From Nannocystis bainbridge (GTDB taxonomy: Bacteria; Myxococcota_A; Polyangia; Nannocystales; Nannocystaceae), in contig NZ_JAQNDL010000003.1 in the NCBI RefSeq assembly GCF_028368995.1, positions 2,496,001-2,560,000 on the forward strand: 64,000 nucleotides of DNA, given 5' to 3'. Shown in pieces: positions 57,477 through 64,000 of this stretch. Numbering within the stretch: position 1 is the first letter of the stretch; every line of letters begins with the position of its first letter. Made by a program: the position numbers and the translations under genes. Under the pieces are notes generated by a model. The model was given only the letters and a program-made list of their open reading frames with translations. It was not told where the DNA came from and searched no databases.

Positions 57477-58727
57477 ATGCTGACCCGCCTCTGTCTCCTC
57501 TCGCTCGGCGCCGCCCTGCTCGCCGCTCCGACCGCCGCTGCCGCCCCCGCCGCTCCCGACGTCCGCCTCTCCGCGCCTGTGGCCGGCGACATCGCCGGCG
57601 ACCGCCTCGCCACTGAGGTCCCCGCCGTGTCCGCCGCCATCGATCGCGCGCCCGTGGCGATGAGCTGGCCGATCGACCAGGCCGCCGACGACCTCCAGAG
57701 CCGACCTGCGGCCCACCGCGCCGAGAGCCGCGTCTGGTGGCGCCGCTTCGAAGTCGCCGCCCTCGCCAAGGGCGTCTCGCTGCCGATCAGCGAGCCCGGC
57801 GCGCTGCTCAAGCTCAGCCCGCAGGACGGCGCCAGCATCGGACTCGACGCCCTCGAGCTCGTCGATGCGCAGGGCCGCGTGCTCGCTGGCGCCGACGCCC
57901 TCAAGCCGCTCGTCGACCCCAGCCACCTGCGCAGCGCCGGCGCCCCCTTCGCGCCCGGCACCGCCATGTTCACCCTCCGCCCCGACCTCGGCGTCGGCGC
58001 CTTCGTGCTGCGCGCCCGCGTGCGCTCCGCCGTGCTCGTGCACGTGCTCGAGCGCGACGCCGGTGCTTACCTGTCCCTCGAGCCAGACGCCGACCTCGCG
58101 CTGGTCGGCGGGCGGCTGCAGGTGCGCGCGCACCTGCGCGACGGCGAGGCTGTCCTCAAGGCCAGCTCGATCAAGGGCGAGCTCATCGCCCCCGACGGCG
58201 AGATCACCCGCTTCGACCTCGCCCGCGCCGCCGACGGCAGCTATCGCGCCGAGCTCGCCGCCCCGCGTCGCGCCGCCGCCCCGGGCGCCCTGCACACGCT
58301 CCAGGTCCACGCCGAGGGCGTCACCGCGCGCGGCGTCCCGGTCCGGCGCACGGTCACCAATGCGGTCTCCATCGCCGCGCCCACCGCCCGCTACACCGGC
58401 GGCGTGACGGTCGAGGACAGCGGCGACGGACGTCTGCGCATTCGCCTCCAGGTCGAAGTCGGCGCCGCCAGCCGCTTCGGCGCCGCCGCGGTCCTCCACG
58501 GCACCAATCGCGGCGGCAAGCTCCAGCCGCTCGGCGTCGGTCAGGCCGCGGATTGGCTCGAGCCCGGCCCCGGTGAGCTCGTGCTCGAATTCGACGAGGC
58601 CACGCTCAAGGCCGCCGGCCTGCGCGGCCCCTACGAGCTCCGCGACCTCCGCCTCGTCGATCAGGGCCGCCTCGCCACCGTCCATCGTCAGGCCCGCGCG
58701 CTGGCGCTCCCGACCGCGCGACGCTGA
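57477..58727 (+). CDS. Secreted Ig-like protein (DUF4785-like), likely partner of the upstream hydrolase
   Basis: Signal peptide, ESR.WW, G..L....PGA..K.SP, GPYELRDLRLVDQ. Confidence 0.7.
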   Translation: MLTRLCLLSLGAALLAAPTAAAAPAAPDVRLSAPVAGDIAGDRLATEVPAVSAAIDRAPVAMSWPIDQAADDLQSRPAAHRAESRVWWRRFEVAALAKGVSLPISEPGALLKLSPQDGASIGLDALELVDAQGRVLAGADALKPLVDPSHLRSAGAPFAPGTAMFTLRPDLGVGAFVLRARVRSAVLVHVLERDAGAYLSLEPDADLALVGGRLQVRAHLRDGEAVLKASSIKGELIAPDGEITRFDLARAADGSYRAELAAPRRAAAPGALHTLQVHAEGVTARGVPVRRTVTNAVSIAAPTARYTGGVTVEDSGDGRLRIRLQVEVGAASRFGAAAVLHGTNRGGKLQPLGVGQAADWLEPGPGELVLEFDEATLKAAGLRGPYELRDLRLVDQGRLATVHRQARALALPTARR

Positions 58728-58853
58728 TCTGTCCCAAGGGACATCTCACCGGACCTCCTGTGTGGTCCGGCGCTCGCCGAGTCGCCGGACCGCACGACGA
58801 CTCGGCCGCTCGGACAGTTGCGCCCGTCAGCGCGATCGGTAAGCTGGGCGGCT

Positions 58854-59906
58854 ATGAGTTCAAAATGCCTCGCCCTAACTCACGCCTTAATCGCCGTCCA
58901 GCTCGCCGCCTGTGGTGAGCCCGTGACCCAGGGCGACACGGGCAACATGAGCGACGGCTCGTCGACCACCGACGGCAACCTGACCGCGACGACCGTCCCG
59001 ACCACCGGCCCGACCGGCAGCGGCAGCGAGACCGGCACGAGTGACAGCGAGGGCAGCGGCAGCAACAGCGACACGCAGGCCACCACCTCGACCAGCACCA
59101 CCGACCCGCTCACCGGCACGAGCGCGACCGACAGCACGGCGACCACCACGCCCGGCACGACCACGCTCGACACCACCACGCTCGACACCACGACGACCAC
59201 CGACTCGACGACGTCGACCGCGAGCACCACCGGCGAGACCGCGACCGACACCACCGACGGCACCACGAGCACCACCGATGGCGGCACCACGGGCGACCCG
59301 GTCGGCTGTGGTGATTCGCTGACCGCGGTCATCCGCGACTTCAAGCTCGCGCACCCCGACATGGAGGATTACTGCTGCGGCCAGGTCGACGGCCTCGTCC
59401 AGCCTACCCTCGGCCCCGACAAGAAGCCCGCGTTCAAATCGGTCGGCAACCCCAAGATGCTCACCGACGCGCCGACCTTCGCGCAGTGGTACAACGACGT
59501 CGCCGACGTCAATCATAAGACCCAGATCTCCCTGAACCTGGTCGAGATTCAGCCCGGTCTCTACTCGTACACCAACAACGATTTCTTCCCGGTCGACAAT
59601 ATGTTGTGGGGCAACGAGGGCCAGAACCACAACTTCCACTTCACGACCGAGATCCACACCAAGTTCCAGTACGCCGGCGGCGAGACCTTCACCTTCCAGG
59701 GCGACGACGACGTGTGGGTCTTCATCGACGGTGACCTCGTCATCGACCTGGGCGGCGTCCACGGCGTCGCCAGCGGCACCGTCGACCTCGACGACCTCGG
59801 CCTCCAGCTCGGCGACATCTACAACCTCGACGTCTTCCACGCCGAGCGCCACACCGTGCAGTCGAACTTCCGCATCGACACCACGATCTGCGCCGTCCCG
59901 ATGTGA
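58854..59906 (+). CDS. Fibro-slime (PA14-like) domain lipoprotein
   Basis: LAAC lipobox, Thr-rich linker, IRDF...[38 protein letters not shown]...SNF. Confidence 0.92.
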
Positions 59907-60212
59907 CCGGCCGCTGAATCCGCCCGCGACCTCGCCCTCGATGACCGAGCGCGAGGTCGCGTCGCGACTGCGACCGACCCTCGCGCGGATCAGCGCCGCC
60001 TCTCGAGCACGAGTTGAACTCGAATGAGAGCGATATCGAGGCGCGCGGGGCTGCCCGCCCCTTGCCATCGCCCGCCGAGGGACCATCTTCGCACATGCGT
60101 GGTCCTCGTTCGCGAGTCCGCGGCCCCGGCGTCCGGGCCCAGCGATACGGCTCGATACATTCCGATTCATTAGGATAGGAAATCGCCCCAGCTTCTCCCC
60201 GAGGTTCGCAGG

Positions 60213-60270
60213 CAACCTGTTGAAATCATGCATGTTGGCCACCCGATTGACGGCTGGCCTGTTGCGTGCT
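60213..60270 (+). promoter_or_regulatory. Candidate sigma54 promoter with IHF-like site upstream of the tRNA array
   Basis: TGGCCTGTTGCGTGCT at 60255-60270 (GG-N10-GC). The reverse complement of 60213-60225 is TTTCAACAGGTTG, one mismatch from WATCAANNNNTTR. AT-rich context. Confidence 0.5.
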
Positions 60271-60665
60271 CAAGTGGGGTCAAGGACCTGCGTCATGGCA
60301 CCGATCGCCGTCACCACGAAAGATACGCACCAGCCCGTCGCCAGAGATGCGATGGGTAAGCGTATTCAAACGTGGCGACGTGGTCGCGGGTGCTGAAGCA
60401 GAGCACTGCAACCGTCCGCGACCACGAAGTCGGCGAGCGTCCAACTGGCGGCAAAACGAAGCGCCGCCAGACGCTCAGTTCGCGGCGCGTCGATCGTTCG
60501 TCTCCTCCGCGAGCTTCTTCCAGGTCGCCCTCGCTTCCGGGTTCGGAAGACCGGGGCCACACCTCGGGCCTGCGTCGAAAGACGCTGGCATCGGCCAACT
60601 CGGCCGGATTCGCGTCGTCGACGCGCGTTCTTTTACAACTGAATCGTGGAAGAGGAAGAGAAGAT

Positions 60666-60734
60666 TGCGTCGTCGGGCGGCCCCGACCCTCGGCTCTGAC
60701 CCGAGGCTTGCTGGATCGACACCAGCCGGCGCAA
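60666..60734 (+). tRNA. tRNA-Gln(CTG), divergent
   Basis: Acceptor tgcgtcg/cggcgca; anticodon arm ctcgg-ctCTGac-ccgag; T arm gctgg-atcgaca-ccagc. Confidence 0.65.
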
Positions 60735-60776
60735 TTTCAGTCGCAGGCCCGACCTATCGTCGGCCTGCGCAATCGA

Positions 60777-60847
60777 GGTGCCGTGGCCGAGTGACAGGCA
60801 GCGCTCTCATAAGGCGCCATACGCAGGTTCGTTACCTGCCGGCACCA
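60777..60847 (+). tRNA. tRNA with CAT anticodon (Met or Ile2)
   Basis: ggtgccg/cggcacc; gcgct-ctCATaa-ggcgc; gcagg-ttcgtta-cctgc. Confidence 0.8.
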
Positions 60848-60863
60848 TCCTCGATGACAAATT

Positions 60864-60936
60864 GGGCTGCGAGCGAAGGCGCTGGCGAACCCTTGCAAGG
60901 TTCGTGTTACATCGGGGGCGGTACCCGAGCGGTCCA
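60864..60936 (+). tRNA. tRNA-Ala(TGC), divergent
   Basis: gggctgc/gcggtcc keeps G3:U70 and A73; gaacc-ctTGCaa-ggttc; tcggg-ggcggta-cccga. Confidence 0.7.
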
Positions 60937-61020
60937 TACGCGGCGTAACGGCGCCTGTTACGTCACAGCGAGCGTTCTGCACACACACGGCGGTCGGAGC
61001 CGTGCTCGCACCGACAACCT

Positions 61021-61108
61021 GGAAGCGTCGTCCAATGGTAGGACAGCAGACCGTTAATCTGCCTGGGCAATCGCCCACTCGATGCAAGTTCGATCCTTGC
61101 CGCTTCCG
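61021..61108 (+). tRNA. tRNA-Asn(GTT) with long variable arm
   Basis: ggaagcg/cgcttcc, G73; gcaga-ccGTTaa-tctgc; variable arm tgggc-aatc-gccca; gcaag-ttcgatc-cttgc. Confidence 0.8.
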
Positions 61109-61113
61109 CTCCT

Positions 61114-61186
61114 GGGCCGATGGGACAGATGGATGTTCAGCGGGTTCTTACCCCGCCTCAGGCTGGATCGTTACCAGCTCGGCTCG
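61114..61186 (+). tRNA. tRNA-Lys(CTT), divergent
   Basis: gggccga/tcggctc; gcggg-ttCTTac-cccgc; gctgg-atcgtta-ccagc. Confidence 0.7.
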
Positions 61187-61220
61187 TATCTCTTATTTAT
61201 TCTATAATCATTAGCAAACT

Positions 61221-61308
61221 GGGCTCCGGCCAGGACGGGAATGGGGCGGACTTTTAATCCGCATGCCGGGCGCTTGCGCTCGACCGAGTTCGACTCTCGG
61301 GGAGCTCT
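61221..61308 (+). tRNA. tRNA-Lys(TTT) with long variable arm
   Basis: gggctcc/ggagctc; gcgga-ctTTTaa-tccgc; variable arm cgggcg-cttg-cgctcg; ccgag-ttcgact-ctcgg. Confidence 0.78.
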
Positions 61309-61355
61309 TATATCTTCAATAACACTCTCGTTCGCGGCTCGAATGGGCCGCTCTT

Positions 61356-61429
61356 GCCGCCGTAGGGGAGTTGGAGTCTCCGCCTCGTTGTCAGCGAGGA
61401 GATCGCGGGTTCGAGTCCCGCCGGTGGCG
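61356..61429 (+). tRNA. tRNA-Asp(GTC) copy 1
   Basis: gccgccg/cggtggc, G73; cctcg-ttGTCag-cgagg; gcggg-ttcgagt-cccgc. Confidence 0.9.
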
Positions 61430-61471
61430 TTGTTCATTGATATCGATATCTCGGCCCGTACGGGCCGATTT

Positions 61472-61545
61472 GCCGCCGTAGGGGAGTTGGAGTCCTCGCC
61501 TCGTTGTCAGCGAGGAGATCGCGGGTTCGAGTCCCGCCGGTGGCG
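61472..61545 (+). tRNA. tRNA-Asp(GTC) copy 2
   Basis: Near-identical to copy 1. Confidence 0.9.
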
Positions 61546-61577
61546 TCGATCCATCTCTGCCAGCAGGGCCATTCTTT

Positions 61578-61651
61578 GCCGTCGTAGGGGAGCTGGAGTC
61601 CCCGCCTCGTTGTCAGCGAGGAGATCGCGGGTTCGAACCCCGCCGGTGGCG
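61578..61651 (+). tRNA. tRNA-Asp(GTC) copy 3
   Basis: A few substitutions relative to copies 1 and 2; same anticodon arm. Confidence 0.88.
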
Positions 61652-61658
61652 CTCGAGC

Positions 61659-61727
61659 AGGGGCGCGCGTGGTGTGCTACGCGAGGCTTTGAACCTCGTA
61701 AGGAGAGTTCGAACCTCTCCGCCCCTT
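61659..61727 (+). tRNA. tRNA-Gln(TTG), short D arm
   Basis: aggggcg/cgcccct; cgagg-ctTTGaa-cctcg; gagag-ttcgaac-ctctc. Confidence 0.75.
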
Positions 61728-61800
61728 ACCCCTCGGATTTATCTTCGACTCTGATGAATCTTCCACCCGACGTGATTCGTATCTGAATCATCGAACATTC

Positions 61801-61871
61801 GCCGATGTGGCCTAGTGACTGGGCGTCACCCTTCCAAGGTGAAGACGCGGGTTTGATTCCTGCCATCGGCT
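61801..61871 (+). tRNA. tRNA-Gly(TCC)
   Basis: gccgatg/catcggc, U73; tcacc-ctTCCaa-ggtga; gcggg-tttgatt-cctgc. Confidence 0.85.
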
Positions 61872-61885
61872 CTCTGTGAACCTCT

Positions 61886-61957
61886 GCAGTTCAGGTCTTG
61901 TCAGTGAGACGCGTGGTTGCCTACCACGAGGGCCCGGTGCGACCCCGGGGAGCTGCT
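61886..61957 (+). tRNA. tRNA-Gly(GCC), divergent
   Basis: gcagttc/gagctgc, U73; cgtgg-ttGCCta-ccacg; cccgg-tgcgacc-ccggg. Confidence 0.72.
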
Positions 61958-61969
61958 CTACCGTGAATA

Positions 61970-62037
61970 GCCCTTGCTCCAAGGGGGCGCGCTGCTTGGT
62001 ATGTAGCGATGTCCGGGAGCGTTACCCGGCGAGGGCT
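61970..62037 (+). tRNA. tRNA-Thr(GGT), divergent with minimal D arm
   Basis: gcccttg/cgagggc; gctgc-ttGGTat-gtagc; ccggg-agcgtta-cccgg. Confidence 0.65.
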
Positions 62038-62047
62038 TTTGAATCTT

Positions 62048-62120
62048 GCCCCCCAAGCATCAATGGTGATGCGCCGCCCTCGTAGCGCGGAATCGCCGGG
62101 TTCGATCCCCGGGAGGGGCT
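62048..62120 (+). tRNA. tRNA-Thr(CGT)
   Basis: D arm gcat-caatggtg-atgc; ctCGTag loop; ccggg-ttcgatc-cccgg. Confidence 0.82.
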
Positions 62121-62135
62121 ACCTTTTGAAAGGCC

Positions 62136-62207
62136 GGTCCACGAGCTCCCCGGTCGAGCGCCTGCCTGACATGCAGGAGGTACGAGGTTCGATTCCTCGA
62201 TGGACCA
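62136..62207 (+). tRNA. tRNA-Val(GAC)
   Basis: ggtcca/tggacc, A73; cctgc-ctGACat-gcagg; cgagg-ttcgatt-cctcg. Confidence 0.82.
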
Positions 62208-62230
62208 CTCGTTTCCAGTCTGGACAATCT

Positions 62231-62302
62231 GCTCTCGTCGTCTAATAGATAGGGCCCAGGTCTACGGAGCCTGCGATGGTGGTGCGATTCCACCCGAGAG
62301 TA
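62231..62302 (+). tRNA. tRNA-Arg(ACG)
   Basis: gctctcg/cgagagt; caggt-ctACGga-gcctg; ggtgg-tgcgatt-ccacc. Confidence 0.8.
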
Positions 62303-62322
62303 CTCATTTTGATAAAGACAAT

Positions 62323-62394
62323 GGCCTCGAAGTGTATGAGATTGCACGCGACCGTCCGAAGGTCGTGGACCGGGTGCGACTCCCGGCGGGGCTG
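62323..62394 (+). tRNA. tRNA-Arg(CCG)
   Basis: ggcctcg/cggggct; cgacc-gtCCGaa-ggtcg; ccggg-tgcgact-cccgg. Confidence 0.75.
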
Positions 62395-62415
62395 CCGGGC
62401 CTGCTTGCGGGTCAC

Positions 62416-62488
62416 GCTCGCGTAGCTCAGCTGGACGAGCATTGGTCTTCTATACCATCGGACGCAGGTTCGAACCCTGCCGCGAGTA
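62416..62488 (+). tRNA. tRNA-Arg(TCT)
   Basis: gctcgcg/cgcgagt; canonical tagctcagctggacgagc D arm; tggt-ctTCTat-acca; gcagg-ttcgaac-cctgc. Confidence 0.88.
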
Positions 62489-62514
62489 TCTTCGTTCGTT
62501 TGAATCGTTCATCC

Positions 62515-62586
62515 AGGGGAGAGGTGTTGATGGTGACATGCGGGACTCCAACTCCTGCGAACCGGGTTCGAGTCCCGGCTCCCCTG
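62515..62586 (+). tRNA. tRNA-Trp(CCA)
   Basis: aggggag/ctcccct, G73; cggga-ctCCAac-tcctg; ccggg-ttcgagt-cccgg. Confidence 0.88.
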
Positions 62587-62616
62587 TCTTGCATGGGCCC
62601 GGTGCTTCCGGGCCGT

Positions 62617-62682
62617 GGAGCCCGTTCTGGTGGAACGTCGCGGCGCTGCCGCGGTCGTCGGTTCGAGTCCGGCGGGGCTTCT
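62617..62682 (+). tRNA. tRNA-like element, nominal anticodon GCT, aberrant anticodon arm
   Basis: ggagccc/gggcttc; D arm gttc-tggtg-gaac; cgcggc-GCT-gccgcg nearly closed loop; gtcgg-ttcgagt-ccggc; no variable arm. Confidence 0.45.
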
Positions 62683-62683
62683 T

Positions 62684-62754
62684 TGGGCTAAAGCTCGTGA
62701 GAAGAGCGGTGCTCTGTGACAGCACAGGAGAGGGGGCGGAACCCTCTAGCCCAC
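62684..62754 (+). tRNA. tRNA-His(GTG) without an encoded G-1
   Basis: tgggcta/tagccca, C73; gtgct-ctGTGac-agcac; gaggg-ggcggaa-ccctc. Confidence 0.75.
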
Positions 62755-62776
62755 CCGCGCGCCAACCGGCGCGCAC

Positions 62777-62848
62777 GCCCGCGTAGCTCAACGGAAGAGC
62801 GGCGTTCTCACACATCGCAGGTCGGGGGCTCGACACCCTCCGCGGGCA
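62777..62848 (+). tRNA. tRNA-Val(CAC)
   Basis: gcccgcg/cgcgggc, A73; canonical D arm; ctCACac loop; ggggg-ctcgaca-ccctc. Confidence 0.8.
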
Positions 62849-62870
62849 ACGAACGTCTTCGTAACAACCT

Positions 62871-62941
62871 GGCCCTGTAGTTCAACGGCAGAACCCCGCG
62901 CTCTCTACGCGGAAACCGGAGATCGTCACTCCGCAGGGTCA
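62871..62941 (+). tRNA. tRNA-Glu(CTC), divergent
   Basis: ggccctg/cagggtc; ccgcg-ctCTCta-cgcgg; cggag-atcgtca-ctccg. Confidence 0.75.
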
Positions 62942-62947
62942 TTCGTA

Positions 62948-63020
62948 CGAGGTGAAGGCTTGATGGTAAGCCGCATGCTCGGGGAGCATGAGATTGTGCG
63001 TTCGACTCGCACCACCTCGA
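62948..63020 (+). tRNA. tRNA-Pro(GGG)
   Basis: cgaggtg/cacctcg with C1:G72 and A73; catgc-tcGGGga-gcatg; gtgcg-ttcgact-cgcac. Confidence 0.82.
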
Positions 63021-63042
63021 TTGTTTTTATTTCAACAATCAT

Positions 63043-63116
63043 CGGAGACGGATCGCGGAGTGCGAGGCGTGTTTCGGGAACACGTAGGCGGGGTGCGACG
63101 CCCCGGTCTCCGACCA
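63043..63116 (+). tRNA. tRNA-Pro(CGG) with encoded CCA
   Basis: cggagac/gtctccg followed by ACCA; cgtgt-ttCGGga-acacg; cgggg-tgcgacg-ccccg. Confidence 0.78.
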
Positions 63117-63162
63117 ACCCCTGCCCCGGGCCGCGGCCAAGCGCTGCGGCCCGGGCTCTCTC

Positions 63163-63233
63163 CCGCGTCCGTGGACGGTGCCACACCTCGTCTGATAAGC
63201 GAGCCCTTCGGAGTTCAACTCTCCGGGCGCGGA
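63163..63233 (+). tRNA. tRNA-Ile(GAT)
   Basis: ccgcgtc/ggcgcgg, A73; ctcgt-ctGATaa-gcgag; cggag-ttcaact-ctccg. Confidence 0.78.
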
Positions 63234-63277
63234 TTTCGATTCTCTTCCTCATCCACGATCCGCGTCGTGCCCCGGGC

Positions 63278-63904
63278 TCATGGCCCGGGGCGCGGCGCCA
63301 GGTAGCCGCCGACGAGGGCGATGAGCTCCTCGACGAGGCGGGGGTCGGACAGCCGCTCGGGCTGCTCGAGCACGCACGTGAGGATCACCCACTCGATCGC
63401 GCTGACGATCACGAACGCGGCCAGCTCCGGGTCGACCGGCCGCAGCTCGGCGCTGCGGGCGATCAACGCGTCGCGCAGGCGCTCGCGGCCCGCGTGCACG
63501 TGGGCCCGCAACGCCTCGACGCGACCGACCCGCGGCACGTGCAGCAGCACCGCGCGGAAGAACTCCAGATCGCCGCGGTAGAGGTCGATCGCGGCGCGCA
63601 GGCCGTCGCGCATCTGCTCGGCGAAGGAGCCGCCGTCGGGCGCCGGGACCTCGAACACGCGCTCGATGCCGCGGGTGAACTTGCGGTCGAGCGCCGCCGC
63701 GAGCATCGCCTCCTTGCTCGGGAAGTACTGGTAGAGCGAACCGACGCTGACCCCGGCGACCCGCGCGATCTCGTTGGTCGTCGTCGCCTCGAGGCCGCGC
63801 TCGCCGAGCACGCGGACGGCGGCGTCGAGCAGCGTATCGACCATCTGCTGGCTCCGCGCCTGGCGCGGCTGCTTGCGCGGGGTATGGCGAATCGGCGAAG
63901 TCAT
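63278..63904 (-). CDS. TetR/AcrR family transcriptional regulator
   Basis: PRKQPRQARS, TTNEIARVAGVSVGSLYQYFPSKE HTH. Confidence 0.93.
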   Translation of the reverse strand: MTSPIRHTPRKQPRQARSQQMVDTLLDAAVRVLGERGLEATTTNEIARVAGVSVGSLYQYFPSKEAMLAAALDRKFTRGIERVFEVPAPDGGSFAEQMRDGLRAAIDLYRGDLEFFRAVLLHVPRVGRVEALRAHVHAGRERLRDALIARSAELRPVDPELAAFVIVSAIEWVILTCVLEQPERLSDPRLVEELIALVGGYLAPRPGP

Positions 63905-64000
63905 CGGATCGCCCCTCGCACCGGGAGCACGGTCATTCGCCCTGCTCCGCGCTCTCGCGCGTCGGCGTCGGCGTCGGCTCGGCGGCGACGGCGGCGGGGG

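Follow-up and report, generated by a model that had tools for sequence, protein, structure and literature searches.

The contact between G18 and pseudouridine 55 is taught as a near-universal feature of transfer RNA (tRNA). Alongside it, the canonical elbow contains G19-C56, a reverse Hoogsteen pair between T54 and A58, and a sandwiched purine at position 57 (PMC7912444, PMC4117946). Yeast SUP4oc tolerates no single change at the elbow pairs, single changes at G18-pseudouridine 55 abolish function in mutational scans (PMC4117946), and G18 is methylated by TrmH in many Gram-negative bacteria (PMC7912444). Here we describe an array of tRNA genes at positions 60665-63233 of a 64,000-nucleotide (nt) stretch of the Nannocystis bainbridge genome, hereafter the window. 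Like canonical tRNAs, its members form cloverleaves with a 7-nt T loop on a 5-base-pair (bp) stem, and most retain G19:C56 and a purine at 57. Unlike canonical tRNAs, the array has A18/G55, A19:U56, or one of A54:U58, A54:A58 and G54:G58 with A60. The patterns presented below suggest a maintained, operon-like long array of supernumerary tRNA genes with alternative, internally matched D-loop/T-loop corners, a reading to which we give a probability of about three in four.

Long tRNA arrays themselves are known; the A18/G55 corner is apparently undescribed, and it is recurrent. The array of PCC 7120 (Anabaena) characterized by Santamaria-Gomez et al. is silent until translation is impaired (PMC8421152). 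With such L-arrays the Nannocystis array shares more than 20 co-oriented genes, short spacers, a non-periodic layout, supernumerary content, isodecoder redundancy without new anticodons and possibly a patchy distribution among relatives of the kind that horizontal transfer would leave, and the stress induction reported there fits the attenuator-like leader found here (PMC8421152). It differs in that no HNH gene was found beside it, a frequent though not strictly defining companion of L-arrays (PMC8421152); the HNH family was not among 13 flanking open reading frames (ORFs) scanned against Pfam. The main text of that paper, as distinct from its supplements, makes no mention of G55, U55, G18, T-loop or tertiary. 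In the more recent, openly accessible literature we found no description of an A18/G55 tRNA, no paper containing both U55G and G18A, and none about tRNA arrays in Sorangium.

Natural bacterial tRNAs without the "universal" corner bases have a precedent in Staphylococcus aureus, where three non-proteinogenic tRNA-Gly lacking G18, G19, U55 and C56 are made and charged, bind EF-Tu weakly and serve pentaglycine synthesis (PMC4574755). Those tRNAs lose the four bases together (with U19 in NP2), are restricted to glycine and have a cell-wall role (PMC4574755). The Nannocystis array, in contrast, retains G19 and C56, its changes are matched, and they extend over six identities. Eukaryotic initiator tRNA carries A60. 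It also has A54-A58 (PMC7912444), and array Gln-CTG resembles it in having A54 and A58 with A60; the array genes are nevertheless bacterial elongator-type, and their A54:U58 and G54:G58 have no counterpart there.

Outside tRNA, T loops of flavin mononucleotide (FMN) riboswitches are UGNRA in 88.7% and CGNRA in 10.9% of cases, with YGNRA as the consensus for FMN and cobalamin riboswitches (Y, pyrimidine; N, any base; R, purine), and 99.96% of FMN riboswitches have A as the base intercalated between T-loop positions 4 and 5 (10.1101/2022.12.26.521914). In cobalamin riboswitch env8 (PDB 4FRG), two hydrogen bonds link the intercalating A to the sugar edge of the position-2 G; tRNA T loops are set apart by U at position 2, and a ribosomal RNA (rRNA) T loop GGAAG exists (10.1101/2022.12.26.521914). 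The G55 loops of the array that read UGCGA or UGCAA fit UGNRA, and their partner adenine would be A18. The riboswitch loops differ in taking another riboswitch loop as partner, where the array T loop has the D loop, and the passages cited discuss no such tRNA.

Elbow couplings in the array and in viral tRNAs

The host genome (G000; 11.05 Mb, 71.5% G+C, five contigs) includes the window as C2:2496001-2560000. Within it lie 26 co-oriented tRNA-like genes of 24 families, on the plus strand of 60665-63233 (2.57 kilobases) with short spacers. ARAGORN at its default setting called 23 tRNA genes across the whole window, all on the plus strand and all between 60665 and 63233. A relaxed threshold added Thr-GGT (61969-62038, 70 nt) and His-GTG (62684-62756); two overlapping minus-strand calls made at this threshold were set aside. 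Ala-TGC (60864-60936), missed by ARAGORN at both settings and by Rfam, was found by hand reading. It folds with a 7-bp acceptor stem containing G3:U70, has A73 and presents the T arm TCGGG-GGCGGTA-CCCGA. The preliminary description of this DNA had counted it as a gene, and its retention in 6/6 array-bearing genomes, with a compensatory T-stem change in one of them (G003), indicates that it is real. The cloverleaf (7-bp acceptor stem, 7-nt anticodon loop with U33, 5-bp T stem with 7-nt loop) was assigned by ARAGORN for 25 genes and by hand for Ala; D arms are reduced in Thr-GGT, Ala and Gln-TTG. The array and the members that bear on the elbow are as follows.

60665..63233, plus strand: tRNA array of 26 genes, called with ARAGORN apart from Ala, in the same order in five same-genus genomes
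60777..60847, plus strand: tRNA-Met(CAT), D loop GAGTGACA (G18 A19), C56, U58
60864..60936, plus strand: tRNA-Ala(TGC), hand-read, T loop GGCGGTA (G54 G55 C56 G57 G58), minimal D loop AAGG
61113..61187, plus strand: tRNA-Lys(CTT), T loop ATCGTTA (A54 U55 U58 A60), D-loop GG retained
61801..61872, plus strand: tRNA-Gly(TCC), D loop TAGTGACTG (G18 A19), T loop TTTGATT (U55 U56), in 6/6 genomes
61886..61958, plus strand: tRNA-Gly(GCC), T loop TGCGACC (G55), D loop TGTCAGTG (A18 G19)
61969..62038, plus strand: tRNA-Thr(GGT), 70 nt, mini D hairpin loop AAG(G), T loop AGCGTTA (A54 G55 U58 A60)
62231..62303, plus strand: tRNA-Arg(ACG), T loop TGCGATT, D loop AATAGATA (A18 G19 A20)
62323..62396, plus strand: tRNA-Arg(CCG), T loop TGCGACT (G55), D loop TATGAGATTG (A18 G19 A20)
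62684..62756, plus strand: tRNA-His(GTG)-like, T loop GGCGGAA (G54 G55 G58), D loop GTGAGAA (A18 G19)
62870..62942, plus strand: tRNA-Glu(CTC), T loop ATCGTCA (A54 U58 A60), GG retained
63043..63116, plus strand: tRNA-Pro(CGG), T loop TGCGACG (G55), D loop CGGAGTG

The preliminary description held that D-loop and T-loop bases change together, and reading of the loops bore this out gene by gene. All seven G55 genes (Ala, Gly-GCC, Thr-GGT, Arg-ACG, Arg-CCG, His, Pro-CGG) have AG in the D loop, four of them (Gly-GCC, Arg-ACG, Arg-CCG, His) without any D-loop GG, and the ten U55 members named there (Asn, Lys, Asp, Thr-CGT, Val, Arg-TCT, Trp, Glu, Pro-GGG, Ile) retain GG. G19 and C56 are retained in every G55 member, across six amino-acid identities. 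Gly-TCC, with D loop TAGTGACTG and T loop TTTGATT, replaces G19:C56 with A19:U56; A54/U58 occurs in Lys-CTT, Thr-GGT and Glu, and G54/G58 in Ala and His. The tRNA with anticodon CAT is the exception it was said to be, with GA in D loop GAGTGACA despite C56. Three members went unlisted: Gln-TTG, which has U55, a canonical T loop and a 4-nt D loop TGTG without GG, as well as Gln-CTG (A54, A58) and Val-CAC (C54). A further coupling, absent from that description, links bases other than U at position 54 with A60, both in the six arrays and at viral loci.

When G000 and 40 relatives (41 genomes) were searched at the DNA level, multi-gene matches to the array appeared in 6/11 genomes of the genus including G000, the others being G001, G003, G005, G007 and G010, all with the same gene order. 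Completeness is 64-88% in the five genomes of the genus that gave no such match. The array was absent from 30/30 genomes of other genera, and elsewhere only single tRNA-sized matches were seen. Array-bearing genomes have in common the array and about 535 nt upstream; their outer flanks differ on both sides. A search of a phage collection returned four records with one tRNA-sized stretch each (three Val-GAC, one Val-CAC), and a plasmid collection returned no matches to the array.

ARAGORN made 102 calls in the whole host genome, 79 of them outside the array. Among the non-array tRNAs with a 7-nt T loop, 72/75 have U55 and D-loop GG, the other three being long, odd calls, and every array anticodon also occurs among these dispersed canonical tRNAs. 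CCA is encoded by 1/23 array genes checked, Pro-CGG being the sole one, and by 6/75 others; it would be added to array tRNAs post-transcriptionally, as in the host set.

For counts across the six arrays, a strict positional 18/19 rule for D loops left many classed as "other", and a looser rule was used instead. G003 contributes an eighth G55 family found only there, Arg-CCT, with D loop AGCCCAGACGA and T loop AGCGAAG. An AG-only D loop was present in 6/8 G55 families versus 0/18 U55 families (26 families in all; Fisher p = 1.2e-4), A54 in 3/4 U58 families versus 2/22 others (p = 0.014), and A60 in 9/10 families with a non-U54 member versus 0/16 U54-only families (p = 3e-6). At the level of the 137 individual array genes, D loops accompanying G55 were AG-only in 32 cases, other in 5 and GG-only in none; those accompanying U55/C56 were GG in 76, GA in 6 and other in 12, and the six U55/U56 genes all had GA. 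No U55 gene had an AG-only D loop.

Three T-arm patterns were then scanned on a viral contig collection and ARAGORN was run on the resulting loci, yielding 373 tRNAs (365 unique); removal of 19 pattern-matching ones left 346 that were counted. In these counts, which show coupling and not frequency, the D loops of 62 G55 tRNAs were AG-only in 59, GG plus AG in 2, other in 1 and GG-only in none, versus a single AG-only D loop among 279 U55 tRNAs, one with an odd T loop. Six U56 tRNAs had GA (5) or GG (1), and GA was found in 0/270 U55/C56 tRNAs. G54 was accompanied by G58 in 3/3 cases, and A60 was present in 13/15 non-U54 versus 4/329 U54 tRNAs. Among the A54/U58 tRNAs listed for the third scan, the six ATCGTTA loops went with GG and AGCGTTA was AG-only in 4/5, the fifth having a 4-nt D loop that was not classable. 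When all unique tRNAs are taken, including those picked by pattern, G55 tRNAs occur on 20 viral contigs and have 19 amino-acid identities. On the 17 viral contigs that mix G55 and U55, the D loop tracks the T loop gene by gene except in five rows, four with G55 that is not AG-only and one with U55 that is AG-only. A mycobacteriophage array used as negative control was canonical in 27/27 tRNAs. The 18/55, 19/56 and 54/58 couplings recur by the same rules in unrelated viral-contig tRNAs. The share of G55/A18 tRNAs on large phage contigs varies from complete (L047, 18/18) through high (L127, 10/11; L073, 11/13) to partial (L288, 9/24; L220, 8/19).

Proposed elbow geometry and use of the tRNAs

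Loop positions 1-5 of Gly-GCC, Arg-ACG, Arg-CCG and Pro-CGG read TGCGA or TGCAA and fit YGNRA; the Arg-ACG T loop is TGCAATT in relatives. Departures at positions 1 and/or 5 are AGCGT (Thr-GGT), AGCGA (Arg-CCT of G003) and GGCGG (Ala, His), the last of which resembles the rRNA T loop GGAAG. Each of the eight G55 families has an A immediately before G19. In seven window genes, and in eight families across the six arrays, the T loop is N-G-C-R-N in place of U-U-C-R-A and the D loop supplies A18 for G18. By analogy with the riboswitch loops, we propose that A18 would intercalate between 57 and 58 and hydrogen-bond the sugar edge of G55. G19:C56 would remain the outer pair in G55 members, Gly-TCC would exchange it for A19:U56, and U54:A58 would be replaced by A54:U58, A54:A58 or G54:G58, each with A60. 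The L shape would then be kept through matched corner replacements, with the other common version of the T-loop motif at the corner.

It follows from their chemistry that G55 cannot become pseudouridine and that A54, G54 or C54 cannot become 5-methyluridine. The genome encodes one TruB. Since G55 members cannot carry pseudouridine 55 and non-U54 members cannot carry 5-methyluridine 54, their folding and use would be independent of enzymes and toxins that need U54-U55. A review describes a toxin whose cleavage site in tRNA is the conserved T and pseudouridine of the T loop (PMC9086364), and escape of G55 tRNAs from T-loop-directed enzymes is conceivable. A compensated, still L-shaped elbow without pseudouridine 55 seems to us the best reading of the corner.

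A matched alternative to the elbow is maintained by selection within one bacterial genus, and many phage tRNA sets contain it too. If these tRNAs act in translation, pseudouridine 55 and G18 are dispensable by design in natural tRNAs, one structural problem has interchangeable answers in the tRNA corner and in riboswitch T-loop receptors, and tRNA gene finders that expect GG and TTC undercount such genes: with the seven G55 genes described here, ARAGORN overlooked one under both settings and a further two by default. The A18/G55 corner offers a direct experimental handle on the purpose of elbow contacts, and a testable idea of why mobile and reserve tRNA sets are unlike those of the host.

Array members retain the cloverleaf and most identity elements. 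By the E. coli rules, Ala keeps G3:U70 and A73, Pro keeps C1:G72 and A73 (as seen in Pro-CGG), Gly keeps U73, and Thr keeps G1:C72 and C2:G71. The His-like gene is an exception in having no G-1; it has U1:A72 and C73, and ARAGORN calls it in 4/6 genomes. A function of the array tRNAs in translation, the regulation of the array and any selective advantage are inferences. The array would be a conditionally expressed reserve set, probably transcribed from one promoter through the conserved attenuator-like leader. A more specific version, which we put forward as unlikely, is that the set is built to survive attack on or failure of the tRNA pool, with readers of U54-U55 evaded, TruB and the U54 methylase unneeded and, as the switch, a leader attenuator whose rare codons would register a shortage of ordinary tRNAs.

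A different role would have the G55 members stand outside translation, either as tRNA-shaped carriers that donate aminoacyl groups to enzymes of the cell wall or of secondary metabolism or as decoys that bait tRNA-directed enzymes, the altered corner holding them off the ribosome or EF-Tu. The non-proteinogenic tRNA-Gly of Staphylococcus aureus provide a precedent (PMC4574755), and the His-like gene without G-1 and the family whose anticodon changes freely would suit such a role. We nonetheless judge it quite unlikely. The G55 members represent six identities within an otherwise ordinary-looking set and retain anticodon loops, identity elements and G19:C56; moreover, the viral sets of L047 (18/18) and L127 (10/11) are G55/A18 across many amino acids, which fits decoding better than a carrier role.

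Origin, numbering and conservation

Returning to the maintained array with matched corners, the coupling could in principle record history, all G55 members descending from one A18/G55 ancestor by duplication and anticodon change. Arrays do evolve in this way (here Asp is present three times and Arg-ACG twice), and the rare T loop GGCGGNA is common to Ala and His. Across concatenated stem positions, however, G55 families are not mutual nearest neighbours, and their stems show no greater similarity among themselves than with those of U55 families; the G55 Arg-CCT of G003 is nearest to a U55 Phe (79% of stem positions). The same pairing on 20 viral contigs with 19 amino-acid identities also speaks against one ancestor, as do the counts among viral tRNAs not picked by pattern (GG-only G55 in 0/62, AG-only U55 in 1/279). 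So does the constancy of AG among orthologues while adjacent D-loop bases vary: the Gly-GCC D loop is TGTCAGTG or TGATAGTG, with TC or AT before an unchanged AG, and that of Arg-CCG is TATGAGATTG, TATCAGATTG or ACGAGACA. We regard a single ancestor as very unlikely.

The register of positions 18 and 19 bears directly on the argument. In all four array Arg families, U55 or G55 alike, an A directly follows [A/G]G, and we take this A to be A20, the Arg identity base. In 7-nt and 8-nt D loops, AG is placed exactly as GG is in array loops of equal length; in CGGAGTG of Pro-CGG it occupies loop places 4-5, as GG does in AATGGTA, AACGGAA and AACGGCA. In Arg-CCG orthologues the base before AG varies (G/C), and because of this the conserved pair there is AG and not GA. 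A covariance model built from 25 canonical mycobacteriophage tRNAs matches AG in both Arg-ACG and Arg-CCG to its GG columns. Run on the window at E <= 1, this model misses Gly-GCC, Pro-CGG, His, Ala, Thr-GGT, Gln-CTG and Pro-GGG, and for these genes the register was assigned by hand; the D arms of Ala (AAGG) and Thr-GGT (AAG) are too small for certain numbering. The evidence supports the A18 G19 register over others. That AG lies elsewhere, leaving G55 tRNAs with no D-loop/T-loop pairing in the usual register, is highly improbable. Loops such as AAGG and AAG are short and unusual, and Arg-ACG allows a G18 A19 reading when two bases instead of one are counted before it. Yet the A20 of the four Arg families, the placement in equal-length loops and the covariance-model alignment agree, and viral D loops AACAGTA and AGCAGCA, of ordinary length and placing, have AG for GG.

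The array genes are under purifying selection and not in decay, since the tRNA bodies are conserved, the spacers have diverged and the stems are compensated. Single-copy tRNA genes of G000 are 91.2-95.3% identical to those of each relative; for spacers of <= 60 nt the corresponding range is 52.1-54.1%. Compensatory stem changes were found in the T stem of Lys-CTT (G010), the acceptor stems of Trp, Asp and Arg-TCT, and the T stem of Ala (G003). The odd loop bases are invariant across the six genomes while neighbouring D-loop bases vary, and even Thr-GGT, with its reduced D arm, has its T arm and anticodon arm in 6/6 genomes (in G003 inside a mis-called 93-nt gene). Thirteen matches in 58000-64000 exceed the Rfam RF00005 gathering score (29 bits); among the seven G55 genes Arg-ACG alone does so (45.9 bits). 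The model penalises exactly the altered "universal" positions. That the odd members are pseudogenes of a dying array, their loops matched by chance, is barely credible: six of seven G55 genes score low with Rfam and the covariance model, D arms are reduced in Ala, Thr-GGT and Gln-TTG, some G007 copies have one-base deletions and an IS630-type transposase lies within the G001 array, but tRNA identity of 91-95% against 52-54% for spacers, compensated stems, odd loops invariant in six genomes and the family-level p = 1.2e-4 all point the other way.

Several observations weigh against a maintained array with matched corners. Some members look relaxed: the His-like gene is without G-1, G007 has one-base deletions in two T arms, and one family varies in anticodon, being CAC in G000 and G003, TAC in G001, G005 and G007, and TGC in G010. 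Met-CAT carries an A19/C56 mismatch, and its position 54 drifts (U in four genomes, C in G007, G in G010) while U58 is fixed. Ala, Thr-GGT and Pro-CGG (3/8 G55 families) have a GG as well, within or next to a D loop of very small size, which leaves their 18/19 assignment unforced, and 6/7 window G55 genes fall under the Rfam gathering score, genes of this type also being missed by the canonical covariance model at E <= 1. Orthologues and array neighbours are non-independent, so gene-level p values overstate; viral neighbours are likewise non-independent, and the scanned patterns favour arrays with G55 or A54/U58. Finally, the elbow geometry is drawn by riboswitch analogy. Set against these points, the claim of a compensatory elbow made in the preliminary description stands as to the divergence being compensatory, given fixed odd loops, stem changes, viral recurrence and structural precedent; its weakest part is the 54/58 swap.

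The anticodon-switching family comprises 62777-62848 of the window and its orthologues (L013-L017), with a body about 95% identical. Its TGC form lacks G3:U70, i.e. no Ala identity has been gained. The transposase gene of the G001 array, of DDE_3/IS630 type, lies at L013:1619-2725 between Gln-TTG and Gly-TCC.

Leader and minor elements

The region shared among genomes upstream of the first tRNA contains one further feature.

60281..60664, plus strand: conserved array leader

The leader contains an invariant Shine-Dalgarno-like AAGGA (60282-60286) eight bases before the ATG of a 33-codon ORF (60295-60396), which all six genomes retain; the G003 version has 34 codons and an in-frame gap of 3 nt. 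The ORF is rich in rare codons, 12/33 having A or T at the third position versus 8.1% in five Pfam-supported window genes (binomial p = 6e-6). The leader is predicted to be a structured RNA in which 12/131 pairs are changed on both sides. At 60611-60634, 30 nt ahead of the first tRNA, a hairpin and T tract resemble a terminator. Collectively, the leader looks like a ribosome-dependent (leader-peptide) attenuator. Pfam gave no matches to the leader ORFs or to a minus-strand frame. The long minus-strand frame was rejected as a gene, being broken in G000, G001 and G003.

No RNA run was listed as containing this stretch. Four runs labelled metatranscriptomic or RNA-Seq, and probably DNA, yielded nothing but short contigs of relatives, each over one tRNA; one of 84 nt covers 63042-63116 with zero differences. 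These contigs give nothing firm on expression. The flanks of the array in the window encode the Pfam families PhoX, DUF4785, PA14, PMT_2 and TetR, and no mobile-element genes were seen there.

A conserved element of about 85 nt (60937-61020) lies between Ala and Asn in 5/6 genomes, G003 being the exception. It consists of a 6-bp hairpin (CGTAAC/GTTACG) and then a minihelix-like fold, not a full tRNA, in which a 6-bp acceptor-like stem surrounds a T-arm-like hairpin (loop GGTCGGA) and which ends in ACC. Asn-GTT (61021-61109, 89 nt) and Lys-TTT (61221-61308, 88 nt) have a long extra hairpin in the variable region and are class II-like. Asn of G010 (72 nt) is without this hairpin, which indicates insertion or deletion of the hairpin as a whole. 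At 62595-62681 lies an 87-nt tRNA-like gene whose anticodon is GGT, whose variable arm is long and whose T loop is canonical. G000 has it, G005 does not, and G001 gives a weak model match at the corresponding position.

Small tRNA clusters elsewhere in G000 (C2:2356727-2357509, C1:3057230-3057513, C3:526095-526398 and C2:2623605-2623679) contain five Leu with Tyr and Pro, three Cys, three Ser and a second Phe; their D loops are slightly odd, their GG/TTC corner canonical. Precisely those amino acids that the main array lacks, namely Leu, Ser, Tyr, Cys and Phe, are covered by these clusters, which may belong with it to the same second set.

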